From a virus (taxonomy: Duplodnaviria; Heunggongvirae; Uroviricota; Caudoviricetes): a stretch of DNA of 15,551 bases. Of this stretch, positions 734-14,776 are shown piece by piece. A program made the translations under genes and the position numbers. The notes below the pieces were generated by a model. The model had not been told where the DNA came from, ran no database searches, and worked only from the letters and a program-made list of their open reading frames with translations. Numbering within the stretch: position 1 is the first letter of the stretch; every line of letters begins with the position of its first letter. The stretch lies in the IMG/VR virus record IMGVR_UViG_2675903575_000009, positions 1-15,551 of that record; one strand, given 5' to 3'.

Positions 734-1765
734 TTAAGAATCTGATTTAGTAACATCCAAAGTTGCTAGTGGATTGAAACGAAGAGCTGTCTCTAAGTGA
801 TCAGGTGATAGATGAGCATAACGCATAGTCATTTTTATGTCGTGATGTCCGAGGATTTTTTGCAAAGCAAGGATGTTTCCACCCGACATCATGAAATGCG
901 CCGCAAACGTATGACGCAGAACGTGTGTAAGTTGACCGCGAGGGAGCACGATAGACGTTTTTTCCATCACGGATAAAAATTGAAAATAGCAGTCTGTGAA
1001 GAAATTGAACCCATCAAGCGCCATGATCTCTTCATAAAGCTCTTTACTGATAGGGATGCTTCTGTTTTTCTTCCCCTTCGTTCTTACAAAGGTAATTCGG
1101 TATTTGGTCACCTGTGATCGGGTAAGGTTTATTGCTTCTCGCCAGCGTGCGCCTGTGCTTAAGCATATCTTGACTACCAGTGCCAGAATTGGGTCCTGAC
1201 GTTTGCAATCATCCAGCAGTTCAACAATCTGCTCATGGGTAAGCCATGCCATCTCTTTTTCTGCGATGGTGAATTTTCGCATGTTCTCCAGTGGGTTTGG
1301 ATACGACCATTCGCCCAGGCGGGATAGTTCGCTAAAAACACTACTTAGATAGCTTTGCTCCAGGTTAATGGTGACCGGGCTGGCCCCTTTCTTCCATTTC
1401 TCGCTGAAGTAGATCTCACCTGTCAGTCGTTTATCTCGATAATGGGCAAACATTTTAGATGTGAGATCGGTTGCAAGGGGATTGCCCAGAGCGTCAACCA
1501 TCAGCAGCAATTTGTCATAGACATGCTGCCCAGCAGTCAGAGATTTACCATGTAGTTTGAACCATAGCTCAACCACGTCTTTCAGGGTTCGACGATCTAC
1601 TGATTCGCCCAGCCAGGGCTTTGCTTCGGTTTCTTCCATCGTGTGACGCTCAAAAGCCAGTGCTTCGCCTTTGGTGGCGAATTGTTTACGCACACGACGC
1701 CCACTACGTCCGGCGGGGTAACATTCGCAAAGCCATTTTCCTGTGGTGAGTTTTCGTACTGCCAT
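734..1765 (-). CDS. int: Tyrosine site-specific integrase (P2 Int-like)
   Basis: N-terminus MAVRKLTTGKW...RSGRRVRKQFATKGEALAFE closely parallels the P2 Int N-terminus; C-terminal catalytic region HVLRHTFAAHFMMSGGNILALQKILGHHDIKMTMRYAH carries the R...HxxR...Y tyrosine recombinase signature. The ORF track extends to 1843, but the conserved start is the Met at 1765, preceded by GGAGGG (1774-1779 on the minus strand). Confidence 0.92.
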   Translation of the reverse strand: MAVRKLTTGKWLCECYPAGRSGRRVRKQFATKGEALAFERHTMEETEAKPWLGESVDRRTLKDVVELWFKLHGKSLTAGQHVYDKLLLMVDALGNPLATDLTSKMFAHYRDKRLTGEIYFSEKWKKGASPVTINLEQSYLSSVFSELSRLGEWSYPNPLENMRKFTIAEKEMAWLTHEQIVELLDDCKRQDPILALVVKICLSTGARWREAINLTRSQVTKYRITFVRTKGKKNRSIPISKELYEEIMALDGFNFFTDCYFQFLSVMEKTSIVLPRGQLTHVLRHTFAAHFMMSGGNILALQKILGHHDIKMTMRYAHLSPDHLETALRFNPLATLDVTKSDS

Positions 1766-1794
1766 AAAAAATGCCCTCCAATAGAGAGTATTTT

Positions 1795-1818
1795 TACTGT
1801 ATGTATAACCAGTGTCAA
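1795..1818 (-). promoter_or_regulatory. Candidate LexA (SOS) box overlapping a sigma70-like promoter directly upstream of int
   Basis: TACTGTATGTATAACCAGTG (1795-1814) fits CTGT-N8-(A/C)CAG with an AT-rich spacer; the CCAG right half is the variant I recall from the uvrB box. On the minus strand a perfect TTGACA -35 (1813-1818) lies 17 nt from AAAAAT (1790-1795), so the box covers the spacer. 17 of 20 positions match the box at 8016-8035. Confidence 0.4.
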
Positions 1819-1951
1819 TGTATGAAATCTTGCGACCATACATCTCACTGAAGCCATAATGAAGTTGGCTATTTTTTGCTATGTGAGTATGTGACTTTTG
1901 CGGTTAGCCTGCGGCTCATTGTTATATTAGGCGCAGATATAAAAGCAAAAA

Positions 1952-2158: not shown

Positions 2159-2728
2159 TTACCTAACGTACTTAATTGTTAAACTTATAATTTTTCCAAT
2201 TATTTCAACATCTTCTATCTTGCACTCGAAGGCTCTGTTTCCACCTTCAACGAAGATTCTTCCACCGGGTAAACGAGTAATGTCGCGGATTGTTATTTCG
2301 CCATCAATACTTATTACCCATTTACCATCACGTATATCATCAAATTCTTTATCACAAATAAATTCAGAATTGTTATCTGTGATGACAAAAGGTTTTTTAA
2401 ACGTAGAGGGTAGAAATCCCTTATCAAAAATATAAAAACCGTCTTCACGCAAGGCACCATCAGATAATACATATTTAGCAACTTCCATCGTATTTGTATT
2501 ACCTGAAGTTTGCTTTGAACCATGTCCAGTTGTGAGCCAATTAAGCGAGGTGCCCGTTTCAAGGGCGCACTGGATTACCCATTCTGCTGGGAATGAGTCA
2601 CGCATGTAGCGTGTAGCGAGTGTACTTTTAGAGATTCCTAAATGATCGCACAACGCCTGTCGAGTTTTGAATCCATAAGCTTCTACCATGCGCTCTATAG
2701 CGCCTCGTCCGCCTTTCTCCAAATTCAT
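2159..2728 (-). CDS. cI: Phage CI-type immunity repressor (186 CI-like, HTH N-terminal domain)
   Basis: About 190 aa, the size I recall for 186 CI rather than the roughly 99-aa P2 C; N-terminal HTH-like segment KTRQALCDHLGISKSTLATRYMR; divergent from the cox/apl-like early operon. Start taken as ATG 2726-2728 (GGAG 5 nt upstream); the ORF track begins two codons earlier at a GTG. Confidence 0.8.
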   Translation of the reverse strand: MNLEKGGRGAIERMVEAYGFKTRQALCDHLGISKSTLATRYMRDSFPAEWVIQCALETGTSLNWLTTGHGSKQTSGNTNTMEVAKYVLSDGALREDGFYIFDKGFLPSTFKKPFVITDNNSEFICDKEFDDIRDGKWVISIDGEITIRDITRLPGGRIFVEGGNRAFECKIEDVEIIGKIISLTIKYVR

Positions 2729-2752
2729 GGTCACTCCAAGTGAACTTTTATC

Positions 2753-4431: not shown

Positions 4432-4658
4432 TGGCTGATGCAATGGATCTTGTACAGCAGCGCGTTGAAGAAGAACGCCAGCGCCATATCCGTGCTGCCC
4501 GTGCCAAAACGCCGGGCGTGTCCCGCGTGCTTTGCATTGAGTGTGAAGCGCCAATTCCGCCAGCACGCCGCCGCGCCATTCCAGGTGTGCAGCTTTGCAT
4601 TACCTGTCAGGAAATCGCAGAGCTGAAAGGCAAACATTACAACGGAGGTGCTGTATGA
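4431..4658 (+). CDS. TraR/DksA-family C4 zinc-finger protein
   Basis: Cys pattern CIEC-x17-CITC (CxxC-x17-CxxC) is the TraR/DksA C4 spacing, not the Ogr/Delta CX2CX22CX4C spacing; 75 aa; start overlaps the previous stop and its own stop overlaps the dam start. Confidence 0.7.
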   Translation: MADAMDLVQQRVEEERQRHIRAARAKTPGVSRVLCIECEAPIPPARRRAIPGVQLCITCQEIAELKGKHYNGGAV

Positions 4659-5512
4659 GCACCATCCTGAAATGGGCGGGAAATAAAACCGCCATTATGT
4701 CCGAACTGAAAAAACACCTTCCTGCTGGCCCGCGACTGGTTGAACCTTTCGCGGGTTCCTGTGCTGTGATGATGGAGACGGATTACCCCAGCTATCTGGT
4801 TGCGGATATTAATCCTGATTTAATCAACCTCTATAAAAAGGTTGCCGCTGATTGTGAATCGTTTATATCTCGCGCCAGAGTTTTATTTGAGATCGCAAAC
4901 AGGGAGGTGGCTTATTACAACATAAGGCAGGAGTTTAATTACTCCACTGAAATTACTGATTTCATGAAAGCGGTATATTTCCTGTATCTCAATCGTCACG
5001 GTTACCGTGGTTTATGTCGCTATAACAAGAGCGGGCATTTCAACATTCCCTACGGTAATTATAAAAATCCGTATTTCCCTGAAAAAGAAATTCGCGCATT
5101 TGCAGAAAAAGCCCAGCGGGCAACGTTTATCTGCGCCAGCTTTGATGAAACGCTGGCGATGTTGAAGGCGGGGGATGTGGTGTATTGCGATCCGCCGTAT
5201 GACGGCACGTTTTCCGGTTATCACACTGACGGCTTCACTGAAGATGACCAGTATCACCTGGCATCCGTTCTTGAACATCGGTCATCAGAAGGACATCCGG
5301 TCATTGTTTCTAACAGTGACACATCCCTGATCCGTTCGCTGTATCGCAATTTTACTCACCACTACATCAAGGCAAAACGCAACATCGGTGTGGCAGCTGG
5401 CGAGGGTAAATCAGCAACAGAAATCATTGCTGTTTCCGGGCCGCGCTGCTGGGTGGGATTTGATTATTCGCGTGGCGTGGACAGTTCTGCCGTGTACGGA
5501 GTACGTGCATGA
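4655..5512 (+). CDS. dam: DNA N6-adenine methyltransferase (Dam family), phage-encoded orphan MTase
   Basis: N-terminus [11 protein letters not shown] and FAGSCAV (AdoMet-binding motif I region) plus catalytic DPPY ([10 protein letters not shown]) are Dam-family hallmarks; GGAGG RBS at 4644-4648; ATGA overlap with upstream and downstream genes. The ORF track start at 4595 is an unlikely 5' extension. Confidence 0.9.
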
Positions 5513-7923
5513 GTCATGCCGATATGAACAACTGCTGCGGCTTTAACGAGGCTGCCGCAGCATTCTCATGGAACAGCCCGAAAAAGGCCATTAACCCTTA
5601 TCTGGACCCGGCGGAAGTTGCGCCGGTTTCTGCGCTTTCAAACCTGATCACTCTGTACGCTGCCGATAACGAGCAGGAACAACTGCGCCGCGAGGCACTG
5701 AGTGATCAGGTCTGGGAGCGTTATTTCTTTAATGAATCCCGTGATCCTGTCCAGCGCGAAATGGAGCAGGATAAGCTAATTAGCCGGGCAAAGCTGGCGC
5801 ATGAGCAGCAGCGTTTTAATCCAGACATGGTCATTCTGGCGGATGTCAACGCCCAGCCTTCCCATATCAGCAAGCCGCTGATGCAACGTATTAAATACTT
5901 CAGCAACCTGGGCAGGCCAAAGGCTTATTCCCGCTATTTGCGTGAGACGATTAAGCCATGCCTGGAACGACTGGAGCATGTACGCGACAGCCAGCTATCT
6001 GCATCTTTTCGTTTTATGGCAAGCCATGAAGGGCTGGACGGTCTGCTGATCCTGCCTGAAATGAGTCAGGATCAGGTGAAACGCCTGTCCACCCTTGTCG
6101 CTGCGCATATGAGCATGTGTCTTGATGCCGCTTGTGGTGATTTGTACGCCTCCGATGATGTTAAGCCGGAAGAAATCCGCAAGACATGGGAAAAGGTGGC
6201 AGCAGAAACCCTGCGACTGGATGTCATACCGCCTGCGTTTGAGCAACTCCGCCGGAAAAGAAACCGCCGCAAACCTGTGCCCTATGAACTCATTCCGGGT
6301 TCGCTGGCGCGTATGCTGTGCGCCGACTGGTGGTATCGGAAATTATGGAAGATGCGTTGCGAATGGCGGGAAGAGCAGTTGCGTGCTGTCTGTCTGGTCA
6401 GCAAAAAAGCATCTCCCTATGTCAGCTATGAAGCCGTGATGCATAAACGTGAGCAGCGCCGTAAGTCGCTGGAGTTTTTCCGTTCTCATGAACTGGTGAA
6501 CGAAGACGGCGACACGCTGGACATGGAGGATGTGGTAAACGCCAGCAGCAGCAACCCTGCGCATCGCCGCAATGAGATGATGGCCTGTGTTAAAGGCCTG
6601 GAGCTTATCGCGGAAATGCGCGGTGACTGCGCCGTTTTCTACACCATCACCTGTCCGTCACGTTTCCATTCCACGCTAAATAACGGCAGGCCCAACCCGA
6701 CCTGGACAAATGCGACGGTAAGACAAAGCAGTGATTATCTGGTTGGCATGTTTGCTGCATTTCGTAAGGCGATGCACAAAGCCGGATTGCGCTGGTATGG
6801 CGTGCGGGTGGCTGAGCCGCATCATGACGGTACAGTTCACTGGCACCTGTTGTGTTTTATGCGCAAAAAAGATCGCCGCGCCATTACTGCTTTGTTGCGT
6901 AAGTTTGCCATTCGTGAAGACCGCGAGGAGCTGGGGAATAACACGGGACCACGCTTTAAGTCTGAGTTGATTAACCCGCGCAAAGGAACGCCGACAAGCT
7001 ACATCGCGAAATATATCAGTAAGAACATTGACGGGCGTGGTCTGGCTGGCGAGATCAGCAAGGAAACGGGTAAATCCCTGCGTGATAACGCTGAATACGT
7101 GAATGCCTGGGCGTCTCTGCATCGTGTTCAGCAATTTCGCTTCTTTGGCATTCCGGGGCGTCAGGCTTACCGTGAACTGCGATTGCTGGCTGGTCAGGCG
7201 GCAAGGCAACAGGGTGACAAAAAAGCAGGTGCGCCGGTACTGGATAACCCGCGGCTTGATGCAATCCTGGCTGCTGCTGATGCTGGTTGTTTTGCCACCT
7301 ACATCATGAAGCAGGGCGGCGTACTGGTTCCCCGTAAATATCACCTCATCAGAACTGCTTATGAAATCAACGAAGAGCCGACCGCCTATGGCGATCACGG
7401 CATTCGTATTTATGGCATCTGGTCACCTATTGCAGAGGGCAAGATCTGCACTCATGCCGTGAAGTGGAAAATGGTTCGTAAGGCCGTTGACGTTCAGGAG
7501 GCGGCAGCCGACCAGGGCGCTTGCGCCCCTTGGACTCGTGGCAATAACTGTCCCCTTGCTGAAAATTTGTACCAACAAGGGAAAGACAAATCAGCTGATG
7601 GAGATACCAGAACGGATATCACCCGCATGGATGACAAGGAGTTGCACGATTACCTGCACAGTATGAGCAAAAAAGAGCGCCGGGAACTGGCAGTAAGGTT
7701 ACGCCTGGTGAAACCGAAACGGCGTAAAGACTACAAACAGCGAATTACAGACCATCAGCGACTGCAGCTCGTGTATGAACTGAAGTCCAGGGGATTTGAT
7801 GGCAGCGAGAAAGAGGTCGATTTACTCCTTCGCGGCGGCAGTATTCCGTCAGGAGCAGGCCTGCGTATCTTCTATCGGAACCAGCGTTTGCAGGAAGATG
7901 ATAAGTGGCGAAACCTGTATTAA
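5509..7923 (+). CDS. A: Replication initiation endonuclease (P2 gpA / 186 A-type rolling-circle initiator)
   Basis: 804 aa; [11 protein letters not shown] metal-binding motif and paired-tyrosine active site YIAKYISK (YxxKY) typical of P2 A-family nickases; canonical position after the early genes. Confidence 0.9.
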
Positions 7924-8075: not shown

Positions 8076-8264
8076 ATGCAGGACTATTTTTTGGAGTCTT
8101 TGAAGCTCCAGCGCATTGATTTTTTTCTTAAGCTTGTAGCGGCTAGTGAGTGTAGTGATGAAGAGAAGGGGCTGGCTCTGCAGTGGGTTTCTGAACTGAC
8201 AGATGAACTCATGGCAAAAATCAGAACCCACGAATACAACCGCTCAATGGATGTCATCAGCTGA
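8076..8264 (+). CDS. Hypothetical 62-aa protein, first gene of the LexA-controlled module (possible Tum N-terminal-equivalent)
   Basis: Perfect AGGAGG RBS 6-7 nt upstream of the ATG; directly downstream of the LexA box; stop 10 nt before the DinI-like start. Confidence 0.55.
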   Translation: MQDYFLESLKLQRIDFFLKLVAASECSDEEKGLALQWVSELTDELMAKIRTHEYNRSMDVIS

Positions 8265-8274
8265 GGTGACTTTT

Positions 8275-8508
8275 ATGCGCATTGAAATAATGATCGATAA
8301 AGAGCAGAAGATTAGCCAGTCTACACTGGACGCCCTTGAATCCGAGCTTTACCGCAATCTGCGCCCCCTGTATCCCAAAACGGTAATTCGTATCCGCAAA
8401 GGTAGCTCTAACGGTGTGGAACTTATCGGATTGCAACTGGACGAAGAAAGAAAACAAGTGATGAAAATTATGCAGAAGGTGTGGGAAGACGACAGCTGGC
8501 TGCATTAA
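8275..8508 (+). CDS. DinI-family protein (186 Tum C-terminal-like / DinI-like)
   Basis: 77 aa; MRIEIMIDKEQKISQSTLDALESEL...IMQKVWEDDSWL parallels E. coli DinI (MRIEVTIAK...ETWESADDWF) in length and conserved ends; GAGGTGA RBS 5 nt upstream. The ORF track start at 8203 is a 5' extension in the same frame. Confidence 0.8.
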   Translation: MRIEIMIDKEQKISQSTLDALESELYRNLRPLYPKTVIRIRKGSSNGVELIGLQLDEERKQVMKIMQKVWEDDSWLH

Positions 8509-8719
8509 GAAACGTTGCTGGCGTCTGAACCTGCTTCTGGCGTCAGCAAGGTTGAACCGCGAGCCTTGAGAGGCGTTAACCATAAGTAAAAAGACAGTAA
8601 TCACTTGATTATCTATCAGGGCGAGACCTATGCTGCACTTTTAGTTATAACTCATAATGTATTGAAATTATTATAATATATGTCATTCTTAAAATGTGTA
8701 TGCTTATCAAGGAGCAAGA

Positions 8720-9592
8720 ATGAAACGTGGCATTGTAGCTAATCCTAATGAAATGAGTTTTCATAGAAATAATAGTACGGTCTATCTTGGGGCAGGTTTA
8801 ACTGAGCAGGATATTAATTATTTCTGCTTTTACTGGGATGATGTGGTTATTCTAGATAGTGAAAATATTCACTCGATTGTGCCTAAAGAAAAAGAATTAT
8901 TAGATAATGGGGTATTACGTAGACCTATTATGAAACATGATGGGATGCTGAATATCCAAGACTTTCCATTTTTATATACGGAATTTCAGTTGCAGACATT
9001 GGATGAATTCAGGAAGAACGAGCCTGCTACTTATTGGCACTTTCATCAAACAGGGGAAAATTTAATATATGATAAAGAACAGAAAACGGCCCTTCAGTTG
9101 AGATTGGAGTTGTTTAATGTTCTGAGAATTCCTGATAAAGATGCTCATATAGAAGATATATTACGTTTTAAAGATGATTGTCAGGATGATCTTAATGCGT
9201 TACATGAGTACTTAGAAAAACTGTATACTGAAGTCCTTTATTCTAGAGACCCTAATCTAACGAGGGCTAAAAATTTTTCTTTATTACAAGAGGCTGTAGT
9301 TAATCTTGATAAAGCTATCGAAGGGAAATGGAGAAATCCTATCAGAATGGGAGTCAAAGCCAATCCAGAAGTAGATGGTGGGCAGGTTCTGGAATTTTTA
9401 AAACCGTTGTACCATGCTGCTATTGCTGGTTATTCAGGCGGTATTATTCCCGGTATGGTTACAGCCTTGGCAACCGCAATTCCAAGTTTTATAAAATTCC
9501 AACCAGAATGGGTGGGCTTTAGAGATAAGGGGCCTAAAGAATTAGCTTATCTTACCAAAGCAACGCATAAGGGGTTGATTAAGAGAGCTTAA
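8720..9592 (+). CDS. Hypothetical AT-rich accessory protein (290 aa) with a C-terminal hydrophobic segment; candidate anti-phage or abortive-infection gene
   Basis: ORF 8696..9592; preferred start ATG 8720 with GGAG about 6 nt upstream. Strongly AT-rich against the GC-richer phage backbone; no family recognised by eye; C-terminal AAIAGYSGGIIPGMVTALATAIPSFI looks like a membrane helix. Location between A/tum and cos corresponds to the P2 tin/old accessory locus. Confidence 0.6.
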   Translation: MKRGIVANPNEMSFHRNNSTVYLGAGLTEQDINYFCFYWDDVVILDSENIHSIVPKEKELLDNGVLRRPIMKHDGMLNIQDFPFLYTEFQLQTLDEFRKNEPATYWHFHQTGENLIYDKEQKTALQLRLELFNVLRIPDKDAHIEDILRFKDDCQDDLNALHEYLEKLYTEVLYSRDPNLTRAKNFSLLQEAVVNLDKAIEGKWRNPIRMGVKANPEVDGGQVLEFLKPLYHAAIAGYSGGIIPGMVTALATAIPSFIKFQPEWVGFRDKGPKELAYLTKATHKGLIKRA

Positions 9593-9693
9593 GACATTTT
9601 AATCGATTTTCGCAACTATATTCCTTCGTAACCACACAAGTGCATGACTATGCCGCATGAATCCGCATGATCGTTTGAGGATCGTTTTAGCTG

Positions 9694-9723
9694 AGGCCCG
9701 CTAGGAATGGCGGGCCTTTGCTT
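9694..9723 (+). terminator. Rho-independent terminator-like hairpin downstream of the 290-aa gene
   Basis: Perfect 8-bp inverted repeat AGGCCCGC / GCGGGCCT (9694-9701 and 9710-9717) with an 8-nt loop, followed by TTGCTT. Confidence 0.5.
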
Positions 9724-9764
9724 ATGTCATGCAGGCGCATGAAAACCACTACATAAAGCGGGCA

Positions 9765-9783
9765 GGCGTGGCGGGGATACGAG
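9765..9783. other. Candidate cos (cohesive-end) site of the phage
   Basis: GGCGTGGCGGGGATACGAG: the first 13 nt match the G-rich start of the 19-nt P2/186 cohesive end as I remember it (GGCG[A/T]GGCGGGGA...); it lies where cos is expected, between the A-side accessory genes and the portal gene Q. Match is from memory and the 3' part diverges. Confidence 0.4.
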
Positions 9784-9807
9784 CGCGCGCTTAAGGATAA
9801 ATTGAAG

Positions 9808-9836
9808 TTGATTTAATTTTTCGACATGGATAATCT
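9808..9836 (+). promoter_or_regulatory. Candidate sigma70 promoter for the 353-aa cargo gene
   Basis: TTGATT (9808-9813), 17-nt spacer, TAATCT (9831-9836), about 70 nt upstream of ATG 9910. Confidence 0.3.
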
Positions 9837-9909
9837 TAACTACGTATGATTATTGATAAAAAATAAACATAAACAATTGTAGCGGATCTTAAAACTTATT
9901 AGGATTAGT

Positions 9910-10971
9910 ATGCTTAAAACAAATAAGGTATTTATTGACACACAAACGTACGTAAAGGCTGGTCTTCATTTTGAGGGGGTAGCATTTAAAGCTTTCCATG
10001 AATTATGTGCGAAAGGTGATTTAGTCTTAATTACAACTACAGTTGTAGAGAGAGAAGTAAAAGGTAAAATAGAGGAATCAATAAAGGATGCTCTGCAGGC
10101 TATAAACACAGTACAAAGAAAAGCTAGGCTTTTGAATAGTATTGATAATGGACCGCTCCATGGTTTTTTTCAGCAATTTAACGAACATGAAATTCACGAA
10201 GCAGCACAAAAAGTTTTTGATGATTTTTTGAAAGGATGTCACGCCAAATTAGCTACAATAGAAGTGATAGATCTTAATGAGGTTTTAGATAAATACTTTG
10301 GCAAAGAACCACCATTTGGGCAAAATAAGAAAAAAAGTGAGTTTCCTGATGCAATCAATTTAGCTGCGGTAGAGCGATTTGTTAATGATGAAGATGTGTA
10401 TATCATTTCTGAGGATAGTGACTTAAAAAATTATTGTGATGGTAAAAACAATCTTCATCAAATTGATTCACTTGATAAGTTTCTAGGTGAATACAATACG
10501 CATACAAACGAATTAAGTAATAAATTGATGCAGTTTATCGAAAGCAAACGTGAAGACATAAGAGCGGACGTAATTGCCCAACTCAATGATGCCGATGGAT
10601 ATAACGTTTCAACTTGGGAAGACGCTGAATTGGATTCATTTGAAGTCGTCAATATTGATGACTTTGAACCATCAATAATTAAGATTGACAATAATTATTG
10701 TCTAGCGACCTTCTCTGTTTCTGTAGATTTTGAAGTTACTGTTTCTGGTCCAGACTTTAATAATGGGTATTGGGATAGCGAAGATAAAGTAATGATTCCA
10801 ATGGAGACAACCACACGAACTGAAGTTCAAGAGATTAGTTTCGATATTGAAATTGAAGTTATGTATGAAATCGAGGATGGTGAATTAACAGATATCGCAT
10901 TTGATGTGAATATTGATAAGTTATCCCGAGGGATTGAGTTCTCTATTGAAGAAAATAATTTTGAATATTAA
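9910..10971 (+). CDS. Hypothetical AT-rich accessory protein (353 aa): possible PIN-like nuclease N-terminal domain plus highly acidic C-terminal domain; candidate anti-phage defence gene
   Basis: AGGA RBS 5 nt upstream of the ATG. The N-terminal ~175 aa have acidic residues spaced like PIN-domain metal ligands (VFIDTQ with D10; TTTVVEREV; FPDAINLAAVE; YIISEDSDL). The C-terminal ~150 aa are very D/E-rich with beta-like stretches. Strongly AT-rich; lies between cos and Q, where P2 has no gene. Confidence 0.6.
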   Translation: MLKTNKVFIDTQTYVKAGLHFEGVAFKAFHELCAKGDLVLITTTVVEREVKGKIEESIKDALQAINTVQRKARLLNSIDNGPLHGFFQQFNEHEIHEAAQKVFDDFLKGCHAKLATIEVIDLNEVLDKYFGKEPPFGQNKKKSEFPDAINLAAVERFVNDEDVYIISEDSDLKNYCDGKNNLHQIDSLDKFLGEYNTHTNELSNKLMQFIESKREDIRADVIAQLNDADGYNVSTWEDAELDSFEVVNIDDFEPSIIKIDNNYCLATFSVSVDFEVTVSGPDFNNGYWDSEDKVMIPMETTTRTEVQEISFDIEIEVMYEIEDGELTDIAFDVNIDKLSRGIEFSIEENNFEY

Positions 10972-10980
10972 TTCGTTCAT

Positions 10981-11010
10981 AACGGCATCATTGTGATGCC
11001 GTTGGGTTTT
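10981..11010 (+). terminator. Rho-independent terminator hairpin shared by the convergent cargo gene and Q
   Basis: Perfect 10-bp inverted repeat AACGGCATCA-ttg-TGATGCCGTT (10981-11003) followed by GGGTTTT; abuts the Q stop codon (11009-11011). Confidence 0.6.
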
Positions 11011-12037
11011 ATAATGTATATATTTCAAAATTTATAATTTCATGACCAAGCCATCTGTTTATTTCCATGAATCTTTTTTGAAGTGGTAATAGTTCATTTC
11101 TTACGAAGACGCAGCTCGCCTTCTCCACATCACCAAAACCCCCAACATTATTCGGCAAAATTCCCATCATCTGAGGCGGTACGCGGTGTGCCGCCATCAT
11201 GTCATCACGGCTGACGTTCTTGATGTTCAGAAATTCATCCTTCGCCGCGACTTCTGACAACGGGATGATCTGAAGCCCGTCCTTTTTGCCGTTAGGCGAG
11301 TACATAAACAGGTTGCGGAAGTTGCCAGGGCCTTTGGCGCTTTTCATCGCATTGCGGAGGTTGTTCACATCCTCCTGGTTCTGCGCGGCATCGGTCATGT
11401 ACATGATGAAGCCTGCATGGCTGCCGTTAATGTAATACTTCCGGCGGAACAGCGTGGCGGACTCGTTGAGCAGGGCTGACGGAATGGCAGAAAGATAACC
11501 TGGTAGGCCGTAGATCTCCTGGTTGATGTCAGGTTCCATCAGATGAAAAATGCTGCCTTTCGTGAACTGATACGGCTGGGTTGTCATACCGTATTGCACA
11601 AACCAGTAGGTATCCAGGTCTAACCCGCGTCGGGTGTATTTTGCCAGCGCAGGCTCAAGGGCGATAACTTCACCGAAGCGGTTCGTGCGTTTCTCCAGGT
11701 AGGCGTTACCAAATACCAGGTAGTCCTGCACAAAACGTGAAAAAGCCTGCTGGCTGAGCAGCGGGTGAGGGATATAGGTACTGGTCAGAATGTTGCACTT
11801 TACTGCAATCGGGGAACTGTGATGCACGGCAGCGCGGAAGGTGCGCGCCAGTCCGTCAAAGCTGACGGGCGGCTCATACCAACGGTCCATCTGTACGCAT
11901 TCCACATAGTCCAGTAATTCTCGGCGGTCCAGAACAGGAACGGGATCGCCGAAGCTGAATGCTTCGGCTGTAGTTTGACTTTTAAGCTGGATCTGATTCG
12001 TCGCCGCAGCGCGGTTCTTCTTACTCTTTCCCATCAA
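11009..12037 (-). CDS. Q: Portal (capsid vertex) protein, P2 gpQ-like
   Basis: 342 aa (P2 Q is about 344 aa as I recall); leftward next to leftward P with a 4-bp overlap and divergent from O-N, the diagnostic P2 head-gene arrangement. Confidence 0.88.
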   Translation of the reverse strand: MMGKSKKNRAAATNQIQLKSQTTAEAFSFGDPVPVLDRRELLDYVECVQMDRWYEPPVSFDGLARTFRAAVHHSSPIAVKCNILTSTYIPHPLLSQQAFSRFVQDYLVFGNAYLEKRTNRFGEVIALEPALAKYTRRGLDLDTYWFVQYGMTTQPYQFTKGSIFHLMEPDINQEIYGLPGYLSAIPSALLNESATLFRRKYYINGSHAGFIMYMTDAAQNQEDVNNLRNAMKSAKGPGNFRNLFMYSPNGKKDGLQIIPLSEVAAKDEFLNIKNVSRDDMMAAHRVPPQMMGILPNNVGGFGDVEKASCVFVRNELLPLQKRFMEINRWLGHEIINFEIYTL

Positions 12038-13800
12038 AAAATCTCCACAATATTGCTGGCATTGGCGGATTCGCCCTGCAGCGGTTCGTTAAACAGTGCG
12101 TGCATCGTTGCCCAGGCCAGATCGGCGTGGCTGGCTTCTTCGCTGCGGCTGGCTTCATAGGTCGGGCGGTTGCCGCTGGCGGTGGTAGCGCGACGGATTG
12201 CCATAAATGATTGCGCAATGTCGGTGTGCCCGGCGTCAAACTCCAGACGGCGGTGGCTGATAATGTCGTAGGCCTTGAGCACCAGGGCGTTTTTAACGTT
12301 GGGGTTGTAGACAAACTCCCGGACGGCAGGAAAGAATGCTTTCACGTTCTCGTAAACCCCGTGACCAACGCCGGTTGAGTCGATACCGATATAAGTCACG
12401 TTGTACTGTTCGGTCAGTTTTTTGATGGCGTCAGCCTGAGCGCGGAAGTCCATCCCGCGCCACTGGTGACGCTCAAGAATGCGGAATTTACCGCCCGGTA
12501 CGGCTGGCGGTGCCACCACCACGCATCCGGCACTGTCGCCGTTCTGAGTACCTTTTGCGGGGTCATAACCGATCCATACTTCGCGCCAGCCAAACGGGCG
12601 CAGGGCCAGTGCATGAAAGTCGGTCCAGACTTCCCAACTGTCCACCATGCACGCCTGCAGTTCGCTGAGCGGGAACACGGACGCGAGATCGTCCACGAAC
12701 TCACACATCAGCAGGTTCTGGTATTCGTCCGGGCTGTATTCCATGCGCAACTGGTCAAGGTCGAACAGGTTACAGCCGCCGCGCACCGCATCTTCCACGG
12801 TGACTATCTGGCGGTATTGTCCGTCTGCGCACAGCAGGCCGGGGGCCAGATTGCTGTGGGACAGGTCGATGTCCACCTTATCGGCTTTGTTGCGCCCACG
12901 GTTGAACAGCGCACCGGACCAGAACGGATAAGCACTGTGTGTCAGGCTGGATGGCGTGGAAAAATAGGTCTGTCGCCATTTTTTGTGAATAGCCATACCG
13001 GAAGCCACTTTGCGCAGCTCCTGGAATTTCGGTATCCAGAAATATTCATCCAGATACAGGTTGCCGTGATAACTCTGGGCCGTGCGGGCATTGGTGCCGA
13101 GGAAGTAAAGCGTGGCCCCGTTAGGAAGCACCATCGGATCGCCTTTCAGCTCCACCTCCACTTCTTTAGCGAAGTCGATGATGTACTGCTTAAAGACGTG
13201 GGCCTGTGCCTTACTGGCGGAAAGGAAAATCTGGTTACGTCCGGTAAGCAGAGCGTCAATCAGGGCTTCACGGGCAAAGTAAAAGGTCGCGCCGATCTGG
13301 CGTGACTTCAGCAGGTTGCGGATGCGGTTGGTTTTTCCGGCTTCCCACCAGTGGCGCTGATAGTTGAACATGGAGGAATGGAAGATTTCTTCCAGTTTCT
13401 CAATCTGCTCATCGGTGAAAACATTCTTTTCCGGCTGACGGCGCGGGCCTTTGTTGCGGTTGGCGACGTTAGGGTTTAAGTCGGCTTCGTTGCCGCCATT
13501 GTTAAACTTGCCGATCCGCGCATGGCGCTCCGACTGGCGCGCCAGCAGGTCAATCTCTTTGAAATCTTTCCCTTCTTTGTGCTCCTTCATAATGAGCTGG
13601 CAGTAGCGTGCGGCGGTGGTGAGCTGCATCTGATCCAGCGGCCCATAGTCACCCCACTTGTCGCGTTTTTTCCAGCTGTGAACGGTTGCAACTTTCTCGC
13701 CCAGCATTTCAGCAATGCGGGCTACGCGGTATCCCTGAAAGTACAGCAGCATGGCCTGCCGACGGGGATCGAGATCTGCGGGTGTCAGTGTGGTGTTCAT
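12034..13800 (-). CDS. P: Terminase large (ATPase) subunit, P2 gpP-like
   Basis: 588 aa (P2 P is about 590 aa as I recall); N-terminus MNTTLTPADLDPRRQAMLLYFQGYRVARIAEMLG typical of P2-family terminase ATPase; synteny with Q, O, N. Confidence 0.9.
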   Translation of the reverse strand: MNTTLTPADLDPRRQAMLLYFQGYRVARIAEMLGEKVATVHSWKKRDKWGDYGPLDQMQLTTAARYCQLIMKEHKEGKDFKEIDLLARQSERHARIGKFNNGGNEADLNPNVANRNKGPRRQPEKNVFTDEQIEKLEEIFHSSMFNYQRHWWEAGKTNRIRNLLKSRQIGATFYFAREALIDALLTGRNQIFLSASKAQAHVFKQYIIDFAKEVEVELKGDPMVLPNGATLYFLGTNARTAQSYHGNLYLDEYFWIPKFQELRKVASGMAIHKKWRQTYFSTPSSLTHSAYPFWSGALFNRGRNKADKVDIDLSHSNLAPGLLCADGQYRQIVTVEDAVRGGCNLFDLDQLRMEYSPDEYQNLLMCEFVDDLASVFPLSELQACMVDSWEVWTDFHALALRPFGWREVWIGYDPAKGTQNGDSAGCVVVAPPAVPGGKFRILERHQWRGMDFRAQADAIKKLTEQYNVTYIGIDSTGVGHGVYENVKAFFPAVREFVYNPNVKNALVLKAYDIISHRRLEFDAGHTDIAQSFMAIRRATTASGNRPTYEASRSEEASHADLAWATMHALFNEPLQGESANASNIVEIF

Positions 13801-13942: not shown

Positions 13943-14776
13943 ATGACAGTGAAAGCAAAGCGTTTTCGCATCGGGGTGGAAGGTGCCACCACCGACGGAC
14001 GCGAAATCCAGCGTGAATGGCTGGAACAGATGGCAGCCAGCTACAACCCGGCGGTGTATACCGCGCTGATTAACCTTGAGCACATCAAGTCTTATCTGCC
14101 GGACAGCACCTTTAACCGCTACGGCAAGGTGACGGCGCTGTTTGCTGAAGAAATCACGGAAGGTCCGCTGGCAGGCAAGATGGCGCTGTATGCCGACGTT
14201 GAGCCAACGGAGTCCCTGGTGGAATTGGTGAAAAAAGGCCAGAAATTATTCACCTCTATGGAAGTCAGCCCGAAGTTTGCTGATACGGGCAAAGCCTACC
14301 TGGTCGGCCTGGCTGCCACTGATGACCCTGCCAGTCTGGGCACTGAAATGCTGACATTCAGCGCCAGTGCAGCCCATAACCCGCTGGCAAACCGCAAGCA
14401 GAATCCCGCCAATCTTTTTACCGCTGCAGAGGAAACGGTGATCGAACTGGAAGAAATCCAGGATGACAAACCGTCCCTGTTTGCCCGTGTCACGGCGCTG
14501 TTCACCAAAAAAGAGCAGTCCGATGACGCCCGGTTCTCTGATGTGCATAAGGCCGTGGAACTGGTCGCCACTGAGCAGCAGAACCTGAGTGCGCACACCG
14601 AAAAATCCCTGTCTGAGCAGGAAGAACGCCTGTCTGAGCTGGAGACTGCCCTGCAGGCACAGCAGACCGCCTTTAACGAACTGGTGGACAAGCTGAGCCA
14701 TGAAGACAGCCGCCAGGACTACCGCCAGCGTGCAACAGGCGGTAACGCCCCCGCTGACACTCTGACCAATTGCTGA
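13943..14776 (+). CDS. O: Capsid scaffolding protein, P2 gpO-like
   Basis: 277 aa; N-terminus MTVKAKRFRIGVEGATTDGREI typical of P2 O; GGAG RBS 8 nt upstream; followed directly by the N-like capsid gene. Confidence 0.85.
   Translation: MTVKAKRFRIGVEGATTDGREIQREWLEQMAASYNPAVYTALINLEHIKSYLPDSTFNRYGKVTALFAEEITEGPLAGKMALYADVEPTESLVELVKKGQKLFTSMEVSPKFADTGKAYLVGLAATDDPASLGTEMLTFSASAAHNPLANRKQNPANLFTAAEETVIELEEIQDDKPSLFARVTALFTKKEQSDDARFSDVHKAVELVATEQQNLSAHTEKSLSEQEERLSELETALQAQQTAFNELVDKLSHEDSRQDYRQRATGGNAPADTLTNC

Follow-up and report, generated by a model that had tools for sequence, protein, structure and literature searches.

The region between gpA and gpQ beside the cohesive-end site (cos) is a defence hotspot of P2 phages, and many of its cargoes are antiviral (Rousset et al. 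2022, PMC9122126). Table S5 of that study records the protein WP_000920989 ('PIN_12') in several gene arrangements, including the exact one analysed here. Our subject is the gene for this protein, at positions 9910-10971 of the window, by which we mean the whole stretch of DNA that was analysed: 15,551 nucleotides of IMG/VR virus record IMGVR_UViG_2675903575_000009. The window is a 186/P2-like Escherichia coli prophage.

Several described systems bear on what such a protein might do. CapRel(SJ46) is a fused toxin-antitoxin that is released by a phage capsid protein. The family to which our protein belongs was described as DUF4935 by Matelska et al. (2017, PMC5499597): an N-terminal PIN domain with four to five conserved acidic residues, followed by an unassigned alpha/beta C-terminal region, encoded mostly by monocistronic genes and given no function. 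More recently, the DefensePredictor study (PMC13092281) validated in E. coli a system, DS-5, whose effector DS-5B is a 376-residue PIN_12 protein; catalytic mutants of DS-5B lose defence, and the partner DS-5A is also required. The same study validated DS-3, a one-protein PIN system proposed to be auto-inhibited. Among HEPN proteins, single-protein defence has been validated for HEC-08 (Payne et al., bioRxiv 10.1101/2024.01.29.577857).

Here, we find that the prophage protein joins a PIN_12 nuclease domain to a conserved, highly acidic all-beta domain, and that this C-terminal domain is reused behind HEPN domains. We see about an even chance that the protein is a single-protein, prophage-borne moron: an anti-phage RNase acting in abortive infection or superinfection exclusion, regulated by its fused C-terminal domain.

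Results

A PIN_12 domain with a full set of acidic residues

The gene and the parts of its product are:

9910..10971, plus strand: PIN_12 protein gene from the list of open reading frames (ORFs), ATG start, 353 residues, identical to RefSeq WP_000920989.1.
9928..10422, plus strand: PIN_12 (VapC-group) nuclease domain, residues 7-171, with putative catalytic D10, E49, D147, D169 and D171.
10465..10590, plus strand: three-helix linker, residues 186-227, from DSSP on the model and from conservation.
10591..10968, plus strand: acidic all-beta C-terminal domain, residues 228-353, about 26% aspartate plus glutamate (D+E).

An initial annotation, made from the DNA letters alone, had read this plus-strand frame as a PIN-like N-terminus fused to an extremely acidic C-terminus, and the ORF, its quoted sequence and the named residues (D10, E47, E49, D147, E155 and SEDSD at 167-171) are all present. 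The PIN-like N-terminus is borne out by Pfam, where PIN_12 (PF16289, formerly DUF4935; VapC group of the PIN-like superfamily) matches with 91.4 bits over a gathering cut-off of 32 (E 1.1e-25) and positions 1-171 of the 172 in the profile align to residues 7-171. An AlphaFold2 model built on a 41-sequence alignment is confident (mean predicted local distance difference test score, pLDDT, 87.2; predicted template modelling score 0.77), and its N-terminal domain has the Rossmann-like alpha/beta/alpha fold of PIN proteins.

Conservation was assessed over an alignment of 41 homologs with 39-56% identity from many genera, including Pseudomonas and Halomonas. D10, E49, D147, S167, D169 and D171 are invariant, and the five acidic residues among them supply the four to five expected for metal chelation. 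The proposal that the acidic residues are spaced as in PIN nucleases thus holds for D10, E49, D147, D169 and D171, but E47 and E155 are not conserved; like E168, they are present here and vary among the homologs. By sequence, modelled fold and putative catalytic residues alike, we regard the PIN assignment of the N-terminus as settled. In length (about 350 residues), in its VapC-group PIN domain with a long helical insert and in its alpha/beta C-terminal region, the protein is a member of DUF4935/PIN_12 as that family was described (PMC5499597). Its 158 homologs are built alike: among the 120 listed, nearly all are about 355 residues long, with query coverage of 92-100%.

Ahead of the putative catalytic D147, within the motif GxKKKSEFPDA, lies an invariant basic patch, K140-K142. 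DS-5B (WP_021513009.1), a distant member of PIN_12, has the same patch before its catalytic Asp (KSKKSREDIPDA against GQNKKKSEFPDA), and for this reason the patch probably binds substrate. DS-5B is of similar length and belongs to the same Pfam family, and DS-5 is likewise a cargo of the E. coli P2 gpA-gpQ hotspot (Table S5, PMC9122126). The resemblance is confined to the N-terminal part: BLASTP aligns residues 7-191 only, at 23% identity (E 5e-7), and hhalign matches DS-5B to the family of our protein over columns 9-214 (probability 95%), which cover the PIN domain and part of the linker. The linker itself consists of helices at 188-199, 202-212 and 214-227 with a conserved LDKLLDIYN motif, and is alignable to DS-5B by hhalign up to about residue 210.

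Searches with the whole protein return little else. PHROGs and NCBIfam give noise-level matches only, searches of PDB sequence profiles with alignments of the full-length protein, the C-terminal domain, or linker plus C-terminal domain yield nothing real, and no PADLOC model matches the PIN_12 protein, DS-5B or the product of the DUF6236 gene further upstream, so that the PIN_12 gene corresponds to none of the systems modelled up to 2023.

An acidic all-beta domain conserved across the family

The C-terminal domain is as acidic as the initial annotation had claimed. Residues 201-353 contain 25.5% D+E and 5.9% lysine plus arginine, with a net charge of -30 and a computed isoelectric point (pI) of 4.05, and residues 231-353 contain 26% D+E with a net charge of -27, against 10-16% D+E in the remaining proteins of the window. 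This property is conserved: the domain's net charge lies between -23 and -35 in 41 of 41 homologs (mean -28.8), and 20 of its alignment columns are at least 80% D/E. Since the charge is kept in all of these homologs, those from Pseudomonas and Halomonas included, it is no codon-bias accident of an AT-rich gene. The C-terminus of DS-5B is less acidic (net -16 over 147 residues).

The domain also has invariant motifs of its own, YNxSxWEDAE (231-240), GPDxxNGxxDxED (280-292) and GIExSxEE (341-348); it is a real domain and not low-complexity sequence. In the model, the helices of residues 188-227 are followed by long antiparallel strands at 230-345, and residues 226-353 modelled alone reach a pLDDT of 90.5. 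The predicted curved, all-beta sheet finds only partial fold matches, to NTF2-like sheets that include the CaMKII association domain and VirB8-like proteins. Pfam and PDB sequence-profile searches with the domain return no known relative, and Foldseek against BFVD returns no match at E <= 0.001.

The suggestion that this might be a DNA-mimic-like module fares poorly. Its charge density is that of a mimic throughout the family (net -27 to -29, pI about 4.05), and a net charge of about -29 falls in the range of known DNA mimics. Its modelled structure is not: Ocr and ArdA are helical charge arrays, the domain is an all-beta sheet, and no DNA-mimic protein (Ocr, ArdA or others) is among its fold matches in the PDB or BFVD.

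The acidic domain recurs behind HEPN domains

Searching a profile of the C-terminal domain against 1.84 billion cluster representatives (E <= 0.001) matched 155 proteins, of which 149 sequences were retrieved. A PIN N-terminus precedes the domain in 109 of the 149, with the domain at about residues 230-355. What the initial annotation had called an unusual pairing is in fact the fixed architecture of DUF4935 (PMC5499597). Most of the other matches are short fragments, and P0252, a 266-residue protein with an unrecognised N-terminus, is left unclassified. Five giant repeat proteins (P0166, P0169, P0193, P0211 and P0253) were discarded as repeat or compositional false positives.

Two matches carry a different nuclease. 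P0223 (494 residues) has a HEPN domain of the RiboL-PSP/MAE_28990 type followed by the C-terminal domain (HMMER E 2.5e-5, hhalign 94.6%), with a G.YDSEDKV core in common with the PIN_12 family. P0231 (372 residues) matches the PADLOC HEC-08 model over its N-terminal 227 residues (E 1.7e-61), with an Rx4H motif and a zinc ribbon, and its C-terminus aligns to the acidic domain over 109 columns (hhalign probability 93.2%). HEC-08 itself differs from our protein, which has no HEPN domain, and the C-terminal 120 positions of the HEC-08 profile do not match the acidic domain; the link is that P0231 joins a HEC-08-type HEPN half to that domain. As judged from these alignments, one C-terminal module stands behind two unrelated RNase folds, PIN and HEPN, and the P0231 fusion makes it interchangeable between the two kinds of effector. 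A regulatory or sensing module would be expected to be distributed in this way, and the distribution also favours an RNA substrate.

The gene for P0223, on a metagenomic contig (locus L018, 132-2818), directly follows a GmrSD_N (DUF262) gene; P0231 is likewise encoded on a metagenomic contig (locus L019, 89-1207). Among the P2-hotspot arrangements in Table S5 of Rousset et al. (PMC9122126) is also 'DUF262 + DNA_methylase + HEPN_RiboL-PSP'.

A monocistronic cassette beside cos

The features of the surrounding prophage, from left to right, are:

734-1843, minus strand: integrase.
2159-2734, minus strand: CI-type repressor.
4595-5512, plus strand: Dam methylase (N6-adenine methyltransferase), overlapping the start of gpA.
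5509-7923: gpA (replication gene A).
8203-8508, plus strand: DinI-like gene, after gpA.
8696-9592, plus strand: DUF6236 gene (Pfam E 6.5e-21; 36.6% GC), in a separate cargo slot upstream of cos.
9639..9790, no strand assigned: conserved cos block of 152 bp, the cassette's left boundary, separating off the upstream cargo slot.
About 9695-9725: terminator-like hairpin after the DUF6236 gene.
9765-9783: cohesive-end 19-mer GGCGTGGCGGGGATACGAG, 15 of 19 positions identical to the 186 cos, with flanks aligning to the P2 cos junction.
9791..11045, no strand assigned: swappable cargo cassette (1.25 kb, 34% GC), flanked by the cos block and by conserved Q sequence.
9821..9850, plus strand: sigma-70-like promoter candidate (TCGACA-18-TATGAT, 10/12 consensus).
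10980..11004, no strand assigned: hairpin with an 11-bp stem from the terminator scan, between the convergent PIN and Q genes.
11009..12037, minus strand: portal gene Q, the right boundary of the slot (Pfam Phage_portal; RefSeq annotation).
12034-13800, minus strand: terminase gene P.
13943-14776: gpO.

The PIN gene thus sits in the published hotspot, between gpA (5509-7923) and Q (11009-12037) and beside the cohesive end at 9765-9783. The idea that the locus is novel territory is accordingly dropped: hotspot and protein are both on record, the latter in Table S5 (PMC9122126).

A search for the P2 cos 19-mer with up to 3 mismatches found nothing, and the site was located by reading and alignment. 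GGCGTGGCGGGGATACGAG has 4 mismatches to the 186 cos and 5 to the P2 cos, with a single one outside the last six bases, and the GCGCGC that follows it is conserved; the site appears to be a diverged 186-type cos. The block around it is 90.8% identical to phage vB_EcoM-813R9 and 84.9% identical to a Pantoea prophage over exactly 9639..9790.

To the right of this block the sequence becomes exchangeable. In a blastn comparison with vB_EcoM-813R9, homology stops at 9790 and restarts at 11046, and the interval holds the promoter-like site, the PIN gene (preceded by AGGA at 9901-9904, five bases 5' of its ATG), a terminator and the last 12 codons of Q. The PIN gene has a GC content of 33.6%, against 50-53% for Q and gpA. 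The hairpin at 10980..11004 is likely a bidirectional terminator in the position of tQ/tW in P2 and 186, both of which have annotated terminators at the same relative place. The restart of homology 37 bp inside Q means that the last 12 Q codons travel with the cassette. The 3' end of Q also contains a short AT-rich tandem repeat (11008-11042, Tandem Repeats Finder), which may mark a recombination boundary.

The slot holds a different gene, or none, in related phages. As the initial annotation noted, P2 has no gene there: the 167 bp from cosL to Q contain only the terminator tQ, and in 186, too, only a terminator separates cos from the portal gene. In vB_EcoM-813R9, sequence corresponding to 8579-9638 (the DUF6236 slot) is absent, the cos block at 9639-9790 is conserved, and the cos-Q slot holds a gene with a Hypoth_Ymh domain. 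Within E. coli, the PIN gene is found in 36 of 5426 complete genomes, as a single chromosomal copy each and at >=99.6% identity, whereas parts of the surrounding 3.1-kb region are matched in 1261; genes annotated as 'PIN domain-containing protein' in E. coli genomes match 9910..10971 at 100% of the DNA. The cargo found upstream of cos beside the PIN cassette is DUF6236 (12 genomes), DUF2971, unrelated hypothetical proteins or an ABC ATPase. By these comparisons, the gpA-gpQ hotspot appears to be two independently exchanged slots parted by a conserved cos block.

No partner travels with the PIN gene. Clustering all flanking ORFs of 78 loci from other species reveals no conserved partner gene, the sole recurrent neighbour being an integron-type recombinase at a handful of loci. 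Between the cos block and the ATG, 118 bp contain no plus-strand ORF of 20 residues or more and so no VapB-like antitoxin gene; no Rfam match at E <= 1 lies within 9550-11100, as a type III, ToxIN-like RNA antitoxin would give; next to the PIN gene there is no tandem repeat array, only the short repeat in the Q 3' end; the cassette has no second ORF; and tblastn finds nothing better than E = 2 for a DS-5A homolog in the window. The cassette is self-contained and monocistronic.

Other genes of the locus are of some interest in themselves. A counterpart of the DUF6236 protein from the same locus of NZ_CP148445.1 (WP_053901735.1) carries a log-odds score of 8.3 and the label 'predicted novel defense gene' in the available part of the DefensePredictor data, where a cloned homolog (working id '6236') has no DS name and was apparently not validated. 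In E. coli NS-NP030 (locus L001, 2394-3512), a 372-residue DUF2971 protein replaces DUF6236 upstream of cos; in the same part of that source, 372-residue DUF2971 proteins score highly, and DS-45, a validated system, consists of a shorter DUF2971 protein. The Dam-type methyltransferase and DinI-like genes are conserved accessory genes of the 186-like lineage, also present in vB_EcoM-813R9. At the prophage edge by the integrase gene, a 251-residue minus-strand ORF at 1-756 has no Pfam match at E <= 0.001; it lies in the int-att region, a minor defence hotspot according to a 2026 P2/P4 study.

Homologs on other mobile elements

A relative of the PIN_12 protein is found in at least 229 of about 185,000 species-representative genomes, and copies recur on mobile elements. 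Two are in P2-like elements: a 54%-identical homolog directly before the portal gene of a Pantoea prophage, and a distant one in a Desulfovibrionaceae element, about 2 kb ahead of its portal/terminase pair. The P. aeruginosa copy adjoins a Pf-like prophage, with an AbiTii gene two genes away. Others lie on an element of Salmonella resembling an integrative and conjugative element (ICE) or plasmid (AcaB, TraG), on a relaxase-bearing island in Pseudomonas, and adjoining MazEF on a Yersinia plasmid. In Vibrio qingdaonensis and two metagenome-assembled genomes (loci L028, L030 and L076), homologs occur within a few kb of integron-type tyrosine recombinases (Phage_int_SAM_4 plus Phage_integrase), and some copies may be integron cassettes.

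On the IncX4 mcr-1 plasmid pEC111 (NZ_KY471146.1; locus L015, 4914-7056), a 393-residue PIN protein of about 25% identity is encoded with an AbiH-family gene one base downstream, and the two may form a two-gene PIN_12-AbiH system. The pEC111 PIN gene is also found on many conjugative enterobacterial plasmids. In Pantoea sp. RIT-PI-b (locus L003, 5236-6943), the cos-Q slot contains genes for a 197-residue protein with no Pfam match, an HTH_3 plus Peptidase_M78 fusion (ImmA/IrrE-like) and the PIN_12 homolog, a trio that recalls the helix-turn-helix/metalloprotease/PIN modules which Matelska et al. predicted among PIN families other than this one.

Discussion

PIN and HEPN nucleases act in validated defence systems such as DS-5, DS-3 and HEC-08, and the protein analysed here may add to them a one-gene form. 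We propose that its PIN_12 domain acts as a Mg2+-dependent VapC-type endoribonuclease that would cut tRNA, rRNA or mRNA and halt translation. The linker and acidic beta domain would form a fused regulatory module that keeps the nuclease off in the uninfected lysogen and, on sensing a component of an infecting phage, releases or assembles it, a logic akin to that of a fused toxin-antitoxin. We infer the RNA substrate, the defence activity, the autoinhibition and the phage trigger from domain content, distribution and position. A role in defence, taken by itself, seems to us fairly probable; the specific regulatory mechanism is more tentative, and we hold it somewhat doubtful. That the protein is a nuclease effector with a sensor or autoinhibitory domain, as the initial annotation suggested, is nonetheless the reading we favour, because the C-terminal domain stands behind HEPN RNases and because no partner gene is conserved.

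Compared with DS-5 and DS-3, the protein pairs the same kind of nuclease with a different fused domain and has no partner. DS-5 requires DS-5A (WP_021513008.1; DUF5830 plus an AcrIF4-like domain), for which tblastn finds no counterpart in the window; because DS-5B is distant, has another C-terminus and depends on a partner, its function transfers to our protein at the level of the domain only. Like DS-3 and CapRel(SJ46), the protein is a single polypeptide carrying a toxin and a fused non-catalytic domain, without an antitoxin gene and carried in a prophage or hotspot. DS-3 differs in belonging to another PIN subfamily (cd18690), with its PIN domain split between the N- and C-termini, and CapRel(SJ46) in being a tRNA pyrophosphokinase and not a nuclease. 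Unlike type II VapBC, the locus has neither a VapB-like antitoxin gene nor a conserved neighbour, and the protein, which is 2.5 times longer, carries a C-terminal module in fusion instead. In its genomic setting it resembles P2 old and tin, non-essential lysogenic-conversion cargo by cos that excludes other phages (P2 annotation; PMC9122126); those genes encode unrelated proteins and lie upstream of cos, at the right end of P2, whereas the PIN gene lies downstream.

Several observations weigh against a regulated defence nuclease. Rousset et al. (PMC9122126) catalogued the protein, but their Table S2 of evaluated systems does not include PIN_12; PADLOC has no model for it, and it does not occur in the available part of the DefensePredictor tables. 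The C-terminus of the validated PIN_12 effector DS-5B is unrelated to the acidic domain (hhalign probability 0.3%), and that effector needs a partner. Only a few HEPN fusions turned up, on short metagenomic contigs, and the promoter candidate upstream of the gene is no better than chance, the number of sites in a consensus scan equalling the expectation from shuffled sequence.

A bolder form of the favoured model, which we consider a long shot, is that linker and acidic domain make up a portable infection-sensing module, attached in turn to PIN_12, RiboL-PSP HEPN and HEC-08-type HEPN nucleases, whose polyanionic surface serves as nucleic-acid-like bait. Binding of a phage nucleic-acid-binding protein would free the nuclease, and candidate triggers would include a phage single-stranded DNA-binding protein, an anti-restriction factor, a polymerase or a packaging factor. 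The mimic would then belong to the defence protein itself, whereas in other systems it is the phage's DNA mimic that is detected.

Alternatively, the protein may be a defence PIN nuclease whose C-terminal domain is a constitutive scaffold for oligomerisation or substrate recognition, and not a sensor or autoinhibitor; an NTF2-like dimer or ring interface, or a docking surface for ribosomes or RNA-protein complexes, would be examples, with control exerted through expression level or a host factor. The NTF2-like fold matches do include classic oligomerisation modules in the CaMKII association domain and VirB8-like proteins, the three helices ahead of the sheet recall NTF2-like cones, and both VapC and HEPN nucleases are established to act as dimers (for HEPN, see also PMC13092281). 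Toxicity would however be expected of a free, constitutive VapC-type RNase, and yet 36 complete E. coli genomes carry the gene intact, at >=99.6% identity and with no antitoxin; a plain interface role also leaves the extreme, conserved negative charge unexplained. On balance we think a scaffold unlikely.

Somewhat further from the evidence is a role for the phage or mobile element against its host or its rivals, either as an acidic nucleic-acid mimic used for anti-defence or takeover, titrating host restriction or DNA-binding proteins, or as a nuclease directed at host RNA or satellite P4. The mimic-like charge would suit such a role, as would the gene's place at the extreme left end of the packaged genome, by cos, and the presence of homologs on conjugative plasmids and an ICE-like element, kinds of element that commonly carry anti-restriction genes. 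We judge it quite unlikely all the same: the all-beta sheet shares no structural similarity with Ocr, ArdA or other mimics in the PDB or BFVD, the invariance of the PIN catalytic residues implies selection for enzymatic activity, defence-type cargo (P2 old/tin, DS-5, DUF2971, ABC ATPases) occupies this slot and those next to it, and the C-terminal domain is held in common with a homolog of the defence protein HEC-08.

A selfish addiction module, in which a fused toxin-antitoxin stabilises a prophage, plasmid or integron cassette and has no part in phage resistance, is very unlikely. The VapC-type toxin domain fits it, and so does the occurrence on plasmids, ICE-like elements and integron-like arrays, once by MazEF in Yersinia. 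But post-segregational killing needs an unstable antitoxin that can part from a stable toxin, and it is not obvious how a single polypeptide would supply this; a hotspot with fast cargo turnover also argues against prophage stabilisation.

That the protein is half of a two-gene system with the DUF6236 protein (8696-9592), analogous to DS-5A/DS-5B, is highly improbable: the genes are adjacent, on the same strand, both AT-rich and together in 12 complete genomes, and the validated PIN_12 system does need a second protein, but they are separated by a terminator-like hairpin and the cos block, the PIN gene at the same >=99.6% identity also occurs with DUF2971, hypothetical proteins or an ABC ATPase instead, DUF6236 is beside none of the homologs in the 78 other loci, and tblastn reveals no relation between DUF6236 and DS-5A.

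Beyond the family description of Matelska et al. (PMC5499597), in which no subfamilies were separated, our analysis adds the hotspot position, the conserved acidity, a confident fold model and the HEPN fusions. For the specialist, what is new is a portable acidic domain common to PIN and HEPN RNases. Should the cassette play no part in defence, it would be just another annotated 'PIN domain-containing protein' in a catalogued hotspot. If it does defend, it would represent a one-gene PIN_12 immune nuclease, simpler than the two-gene DS-5 and easy to dissect, and a defined trigger-effector pair could yield a programmable RNase switch. A defending cassette would also show the P2 hotspot to be really two independent slots split by cos, which matters for the mining of prophages for new systems. 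A function would moreover be assigned to a domain that has lacked one since 2017, that is encoded in at least 229 species-representative genomes and that PIN and HEPN effectors have in common.

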